From the IMG/VR virus record IMGVR_UViG_2541047857_000014: 64,000 nucleotides of DNA. One strand, 5' to 3'. The notes under the pieces were generated by a model. The model searched no databases. It had not been told where the DNA came from and saw only the letters and a list, made by a program, of their open reading frames with translations. Below are positions 12,537-12,724 of the stretch, one piece after another. The translations under genes were made by a program, and so were the position numbers. The first letter of the stretch is position 1. Each line of letters opens with the position of its first letter. The DNA comes from a virus. Taxonomy: Duplodnaviria; Heunggongvirae; Uroviricota; Caudoviricetes.

Positions 12537-12632
12537 CTTTCTACCTCATCACGAAAAAATATTTTTTCCTAAAAAGACTTAAGTTAGCTTAATCTATTGA
12601 TAAAAAAAAGCTAAGTAACGACCAAATACGCG

Positions 12633-12652
12633 CGCTCGTATCCCCGCCACGC
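12633..12652 (-). other. candidate cos (cohesive end) site of the P2/186-like prophage
   Basis: Minus strand reads GGCGTGGCGGGGATACGAGC; the first 13 nt match my recollection of the P2/186 19-nt cohesive end (GGCG[A/T]GGCGGGGAAAGCA-). Match is partial and recalled from memory. Confidence 0.3.
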
Positions 12653-12697
12653 CTGCCCGCTTTATGTAGTGGTTTTCATGCACCTGCATGATCTACG

Positions 12698-12724
12698 CAA
12701 AAGCCCGCCAGTTCTGGCGGGCCT
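12698..12724 (-). terminator. putative terminator downstream of DinI-like gene
   Basis: Inverted repeat gcccgccag/ctggcgggc; on the minus strand it is followed by TTTTG. Confidence 0.4.

Follow-up and report, generated by a model that had tools for sequence, protein, structure and literature searches.

Organization of the prophage locus

The 64,000-nucleotide stretch analyzed here (IMG/VR virus record IMGVR_UViG_2541047857_000014, Caudoviricetes; hereafter termed the window) is identical to Escherichia coli S88 over the 25.4 kb that were compared and carries a P2-family prophage, in which an intergenic region between a DinI-like gene and a gene for a 469-amino-acid (aa) protein contains a candidate cohesive-end site (cos). 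This site and the neighboring 469-aa gene are the subject of the present analysis. On the minus strand of the window the order runs CI and integrase, regulators, Dam methylase, replication gene A, a small open reading frame (ORF), DinI, cos, the 469-aa gene, Q, P, O, N, M, L, lysis and tail genes. The prophage adjoins ssrA, as Fels-2-type phages do, and extends beyond the window, where S88 carries the tail genes, D, ogr and ssrA. This order places the 469-aa gene between cos and Q, in agreement with what the initial annotation of this DNA had proposed.

On the right-end side of cos, the series of genes ends with the DinI-like gene (12858..13091, minus strand; Pfam DinI, E 1e-22; RefSeq WP_001217575.1 in S88). 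The 469-aa gene (11127..12536, minus strand), which PADLOC places in the PD-T7-1 defence family and which matches phrog_8571, is the predicted leftmost gene of the packaged DNA; numbering from the predicted left 5' end (12653), its ATG (12536) is at nucleotide 118. Beyond it stand the portal gene Q (10045..11079, plus strand; Pfam Phage_portal and RefSeq annotation), the large terminase (ATPase) gene P (8279..10045, plus strand; Pfam Terminase_6N, Terminase_6C and Terminase_5) and gene M for the small/endonuclease terminase subunit (5574..6224, minus strand; phrog_74, terminase small subunit, E 3e-88). The candidate site thus has the A-side accessory genes on one side and Q on the other, and both terminase subunits, gpP and gpM, are encoded in the same genome.

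Sequence and conservation of the cos site

The 19-nucleotide (nt) cohesive-end sequence 5'-GGCGTGGCGGGGATACGAG-3' was assigned to 12635..12653 on the minus strand (12653->12635) by its identity with the mapped cos of an E. coli HS prophage and with the annotated putative cos of SEN8. A 19-nt G+C-rich end of the P2-family type, GGCG(A/T)GGCGGGGA......, is found at exactly these positions. The 20-mer on which the initial annotation had based its proposal, GGCGTGGCGGGGATACGAGC, was correctly read but lies one base away from where it had been placed, at 12653->12634 instead of 12633-12652. The GenBank annotations of the P2 (GGCGAGGCGGGGAAAGCAC) and 186 (GGCGTGGCGGGGAAAGCAT) cohesive ends agree with the P2/186 sequence used for comparison in the initial annotation; the first 13 nt, described there as shared with it, are identical to 186 and PSP3 (13/13) and match P2 at 12 of 13 positions. 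Over the whole 19-mer, identity is complete with HS, SEN8, Fels-2, 813R9 and MLG42 and drops to 15/19 with 186 and PSP3 and to 14/19 with P2 and P4. Several phage records agree with this position: those of SEN8, PSP3 and EtG end exactly at the equivalent of 12654, a shared position that counts in favor of cos since these records were linearised at cos by their authors, the Smp131 record starts at the equivalent of 12653, and the same segment is annotated as cos in Cartapus.

The 13-mer class GGCGWGGCGGGGA occurs once in the window, with 0.12 occurrences expected by chance when one mismatch is allowed. A 54-nt degenerate pattern derived from the P2, 186 and P4 cos core (TGCATKAAAACC-N8-AARYGGGCR-GGCGWGGCGGGGA-N7-GCGCG) likewise gave a single match, at 12629-12682 and with zero mismatches, while none of 100 shuffled sequences matched. 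With a 76-nt query, the 72 aligned bases were 100% identical to Fels-2 (E 4e-29).

Conservation reaches past the 19-mer on both sides. Reference cos sites were rebuilt by joining the right and left ends of the P2, 186, PSP3, P4 and SEN8 records and aligned with the window, an alignment that the initial annotation had suggested for P2 and 186. The P2/P4-type core, a concept attributed by later papers to Ziermann and Calendar (1990), comprises 55 bp (12628..12682, minus strand), made up of 29 nt upstream (TGCATGAAAACCACTACATAAAGCGGGCA), the 19-mer and CGCGCG(T). Ungapped identity over this core amounts to 41/55 for P2, 43/55 for 186, 44/55 for PSP3, 42/55 for P4, 53/55 for SEN8 and 54/55 for HS; the sole deviation from the conserved core is a T in place of C at +26.

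Full cos function probably requires about 125 bp, and a longer conserved block could be delimited here. GCAT boxes are present on the minus strand at 12776-12773, 12763-12760, 12753-12750 and 12681-12678, corresponding to positions -123 (or -122), -110, -100 and -28 from the first G of the end, and they recur at these positions in all seven cos sites compared (window, P2, 186, PSP3, P4, SEN8 and HS). The sequence between the boxes differs among the seven sites and the distances of the boxes from the nick remain constant, which suggests a fixed protein-binding geometry. Satellite P4 has been reported to have nothing else in common with P2 beyond cos. As Fels-2 and HS have an extra gene between DinI and position -123, the block common to all is 12629..12776 (minus strand), a 148-bp module spanning -123 to +25 that is shared by the window, Fels-2, HS, RE2010 and many Klebsiella phages. 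The start of the P2 old transcript at about -150 fits a module of this size. A G+C-rich hairpin followed by UUUU lies in the spacer of the module (12697..12728, minus strand; inverted repeat with an RNA fold of -25.1 kcal/mol, z -5.0) and is probably the terminator of the DinI-side transcript. Using 12629-12782 as a query, the module was detected in 1277 of 5426 complete E. coli genomes, at 1324 places, 8 of them on plasmids. Delimiting the cos module from sequence alone, by its phased GCAT boxes and its limits at -123 and +25, should be useful for annotation and for cos-based transducing vectors.

Taken together, these observations make it highly probable that the prophage inserted at ssrA in E. 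coli S88, a Fels-2-like member of the P2 family, has its cos site at 12629-12776, and the cos that the initial annotation had judged probable in this intergenic region is borne out by the core, the GCAT boxes and the identical 19-mer mapped in HS.

Mapped ends in the E. coli HS prophage

After induction of E. coli HS, Zünd et al. (2021; Microbiome, PMC8008629, Supplementary Table 4) used read starts and PhageTerm to map the cos of the prophage in this strain to 926016-926034, with the sequence 5'-GGCGTGGCGGGGATACGAG-3'. We located this site at 926016 in NC_009800, where the 19-mer is identical to window 12653->12635. The HS prophage resembles that of the window in its core (54/55), in its 148-bp module (95.9% identical) and in its layout of DinI, cos, one cargo gene and Q; it differs in that its slot holds an unrelated gene of 463 aa, that an additional gene of 225 aa separates DinI from cos, that +26 is a C and that gpA is intact. 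The two gpP proteins are identical over 589/589 residues and share the RefSeq protein accession WP_001098431.1, and gpM is identical at 213 of 217 positions (98%). The same 19-mer together with the same gpP, in a prophage whose ends were mapped, means that the same enzyme and the same site yield the mapped ends in a close relative. SEN8 is a virion-derived genome, in which the identical 19-mer is called a putative cos by annotation only.

By likeness to HS, the terminase of the S88 prophage would cleave at 12653/12635, with predicted nicks between 12654 and 12653 on the top strand and between 12635 and 12634 on the bottom strand. In such a scheme, built on P2 biology and on the HS mapping, gpM and gpP would recognize the cos module through parts located almost entirely on its right-end side (the GCAT boxes at -123, -110 and -100 and the block from -29 to -1) and would introduce nicks 19 nt apart to leave 5' overhangs of sequence GGCGTGGCGGGGATACGAG. 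The left-end side shows hardly any conservation, so that DNA beyond +26 would be free to vary. Conservation continues for just six or seven bases (CGCGCG) past the 19-mer before foreign DNA begins, which indicates that the cos-to-Q slot tolerates cargo and that this cargo can begin six or seven bases after the cut; in the window, the slot contains a 1.6-kb low-G+C PD-T7-1 cassette.

A PD-T7-1 family gene between cos and Q

The gene between cos and Q had been regarded as an orphan, a description that has to be abandoned. The PADLOC model for PD-T7-1 (PDLC04073) matches the protein essentially over its full length (E 1.3e-196, residues 7-457 of 469, model positions 2-449 of 452), the PD-T7-5 model matches it more weakly, and more than 3,700 homologues (3,727 at E <= 1e-5) are spread over Proteobacteria. 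Searches of Pfam and of PDB sequences with the protein returned nothing significant. An AlphaFold model computed from 35 homologues is of high confidence, with a predicted local distance difference test score (pLDDT) of 88.4 and a predicted template modeling score (pTM) of 0.89. PD-T7-1 itself was described from ECOR46 (RCQ85672.1) as a single prophage gene, recovered by functional selection and validated as a defence gene, which acts more strongly on T-even phages than on T7 and is labelled 'Nuclease' in Table S1 of that study (Vassallo et al. 2022, PMC9519451). The S88 gene is likewise a single, prophage-borne gene. We conclude that the S88 allele is a predicted anti-phage defence gene of the PD-T7-1 family, and its product a putative PD-(D/E)XK-type nuclease.

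The product of this gene in S88 has the RefSeq accession WP_000008839, which is listed in the gpA-gpQ locus table (Table S5) of Rousset et al. (2022, PMC9122126). Identity of the 469-aa gene with the system that Rousset et al. had cloned from S88 (pFR103, 'putative HEPN') was considered and rejected, the pFR103 insert being absent from the window. The only Rfam match, to IS009 inside the PD-T7-1 ORF, was sub-threshold (23 bits against a gathering score of 117) and was taken as chance. As for expression, we infer that PD-T7-1 is transcribed from its own AT-rich leader; a scan for consensus promoters found none for the gene in 12537-12628, and the count of matches in the region was no higher than in shuffled sequences.

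Whereas the cos module is widespread, only 25 complete E. coli genomes have the PD-T7-1 arrangement, with 98.6-100% identity; they come from humans, poultry, pigs, cattle and lettuce. Homologues elsewhere in phage genomes are only 32-36% identical. One of these, a 33%-identical homologue in Yersinia phage vB_YpM_46 (2989-4338), lies between the tail-fibre assembly and tail-sheath genes, which is the P2 Z/fun slot, so that the PD-T7-1 family occupies more than one P2 hotspot.

The cargo cassette and its junctions

Loss of homology and base composition delimit a low-G+C cassette of about 1.6 kb at 10995..12628, in which PD-T7-1 and its 5' leader are accompanied by a bidirectional hairpin and by the final 19-28 codons of Q, which are divergent. 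In twelve pairwise comparisons, including those with 813R9, 500465-1, Fels-2, MLG42, SEN8, Cartapus and HS, homology breaks off at 12629, six bases beyond the 19-mer, and is not regained until within the 3' end of Q, between 10994 and 11060. The G+C content of the cassette is 29-39% (about 35%) versus 51-63% in the flanking phage genes. Oriented away from cos, PD-T7-1 meets the convergent gene Q at a hairpin common to both (11084..11106; -14.7 and -15.4 kcal/mol for its two strands, z about -5), which stands where P2 has the terminator tQ and 186 has tW. The last 19-28 codons of Q (10995-11079) are AT-rich and diverge from relatives at varied points, from 10994 to 11060; exchange of the cassette thus seems to bring its own Q C-terminus and terminator hairpin.

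Next to cos, the start of each cargo cassette examined varies by no more than one or two bases, at +25 to +27, immediately after the bottom-strand nick, and this holds in Fels-2-like phages as well as in satellite P4. The other cos sites have C at +26 and often A at +27, so the T at +26 of the window puts its junction one base further in. On the right side, the cargo of HS and Fels-2 begins at the first GCAT box (-123). Such near-constant starting points raise the idea that the module of about 150 bp might be more than a passive homology anchor, with terminase-made ends serving as recombination substrates that dock new cassettes. If true, this would supply a mechanistic reason why helper and satellite defence hotspots both adjoin cos. 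We nevertheless regard it as improbable. The data do not separate it from ordinary homologous recombination in which the conserved flanks at cos and at Q are exchanged, combined with selection against disruption of cos.

Alternative explanations for the site

The most serious alternative to a functional cos in S88 is that the site is genuine by descent but unused in this strain, the prophage being defective and the 469-aa gene never terminal in virion DNA here. Three observations weigh against use of the site in S88. Gene A (13444-15884, minus strand), annotated as a pseudogene in the RefSeq record of S88, contains a perfect 26-nt tandem duplication (2.3 copies, 13809-13867) that shifts the frame and truncates the product to 695 aa versus about 803 aa in relatives; gene A of vB_EcoM-813R9 lacks the extra 26-nt copy. 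Position +26 (12628), a C in all other cos sites compared, is a T in the window, a C-to-T change that could itself contribute to the defect. Finally, no phage isolate with this PD-T7-1 cassette was present in the collection searched. The prophage may accordingly be replication-defective owing to the frameshift in A. However, the functional A protein of 186 is, by its coordinates, 694 aa long, so loss of function of the 695-aa protein is not certain, the head, tail, lysis and terminase genes are all intact, and the arrangement persists in 25 complete E. coli genomes, a number in which horizontal spread and clonal descent are not separated. On balance, disuse of the site in S88 is a real possibility, albeit clearly the less probable one. 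Given the duplication in A, the T at +26 and the absence of an isolate with the cassette, the earlier claim that the 469-aa gene is the terminal gene of linear virion DNA is limited to the phage type, for which it stands; for this particular S88 prophage it is a prediction from sequence.

A second explanation, that the true cos lies elsewhere, for instance just after the Q stop codon as in P2 and 186, and that 12635-12653 is a remnant, draws on the fact that cos is situated 167-176 nt from the end of Q in these two phages. The initial annotation had itself named a cos right after the Q stop as an observation that would overturn its proposal. In the window, the 47 nt following the Q stop consist of an AT-rich hairpin without similarity to cos, the 64 kb hold a single cos-like match, and HS, with the same layout and a different gene in the slot, has its ends mapped at the distal site; we therefore consider this explanation very improbable. 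A chance match of a G+C-rich stretch, to which the mere 14/19 identity with P2 within the 19-mer might point, is already refuted by the failure of all 100 shuffles to reproduce the core pattern, the unbroken identity with Fels-2, the GCAT boxes in phase in seven cos sites and the syntenic gene context.

Other genes of the window

Additional genes outside the cos region were noted. A 566-aa AIPR / Abi-alpha-like abortive-infection gene (561-2261, plus strand; phrog_1841, E 4e-146) is inserted, on the opposite strand, between a virion-morphogenesis gene and baseplate gene V, and its location indicates a second defence cargo slot in the same prophage. Past the integrase gene (19567-20586), the segment 20591-24741 encodes a 407-aa protein (phrog_7835), a PD-(D/E)XK nuclease-domain protein (22555-23343) and a GIY-YIG protein (23935-24741); these genes may form an island of their own or be more cargo, located from int to the attachment site. 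A second series of phage-like ORFs on the minus strand at about 30000-47000, with ORFs of 577, 413 and 401 aa at 41501-46517, suggests another prophage in the window.

Comparison with known systems

The cos sites of P2, 186, PSP3 and P4 share with the window the GGCG(A/T)GGCGGGGA start, the block from -29 to -1, GCGCGC after the end and the four GCAT boxes; they differ from it at four to five of the end positions 14-19. Unlike in the window, the interval from cos to Q contains no gene in P2, 186 and PSP3, and the P2 cargo genes old and tin are on the other side of cos. The P2 layout (cos at 1-19, terminator tQ at 160-181, Q at 187-1221) confirms the initial statement that the interval is gene-free in P2, and the same is true of 186, the two phages having only about 140 nt plus the tQ or tW terminator there.

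Among other relatives the slot is occupied by unrelated genes in six cases: a 565-aa protein in Fels-2, two genes in SEN8, a DUF4145 protein in Cartapus, a Hypoth_Ymh protein in vB_EcoM-813R9, a TIR protein and one other in 500465-1, and the unrelated 463-aa protein in HS. Variable non-core genes between A and Q, beside cos, correspond to defence 'hotspot #1' of P2-like phages as presented by Rousset et al. (2022, PMC9122126) and Vassallo et al. (2022, PMC9519451), where the P4 hotspot is likewise described as adjoining cos. In the passages of both surveys that define it, the hotspot is delimited by the flanking genes A and Q, and the side of cos on which each cargo lies is not stated. The position between cosL and the Q homologue is, according to Askora et al. 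(2017), a hotspot proposed by Dodd and Egan (1996) and Nakayama et al. (1999). Retrons Ec67 and Ec86 (Dodd and Egan 1996, as cited in later papers) and ORF1-4 of phiRSY1 (PMC5694545) also occupy the cos-to-Q slot. A gene in this slot is therefore a common and long-described arrangement. The ctx toxin gene of phiCTX is, we presume, also located beside cos.

With the hotspot described in print and WP_000008839 present in the table of Rousset et al., the S88 combination of cos and cargo is of a known kind and this instance is already catalogued; the finding opens no new question. What it provides is a fixed map of the prophage, with predicted ends for the packaged DNA and with the supposed orphan recognized as a defence gene already on record, in the cargo slot that is best known among P2-like phages. 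In the window as in the known cases, foreign genes take the place of the DNA that runs from cos to the terminator or the end of Q, and the S88 prophage shows no difference of substance from them.
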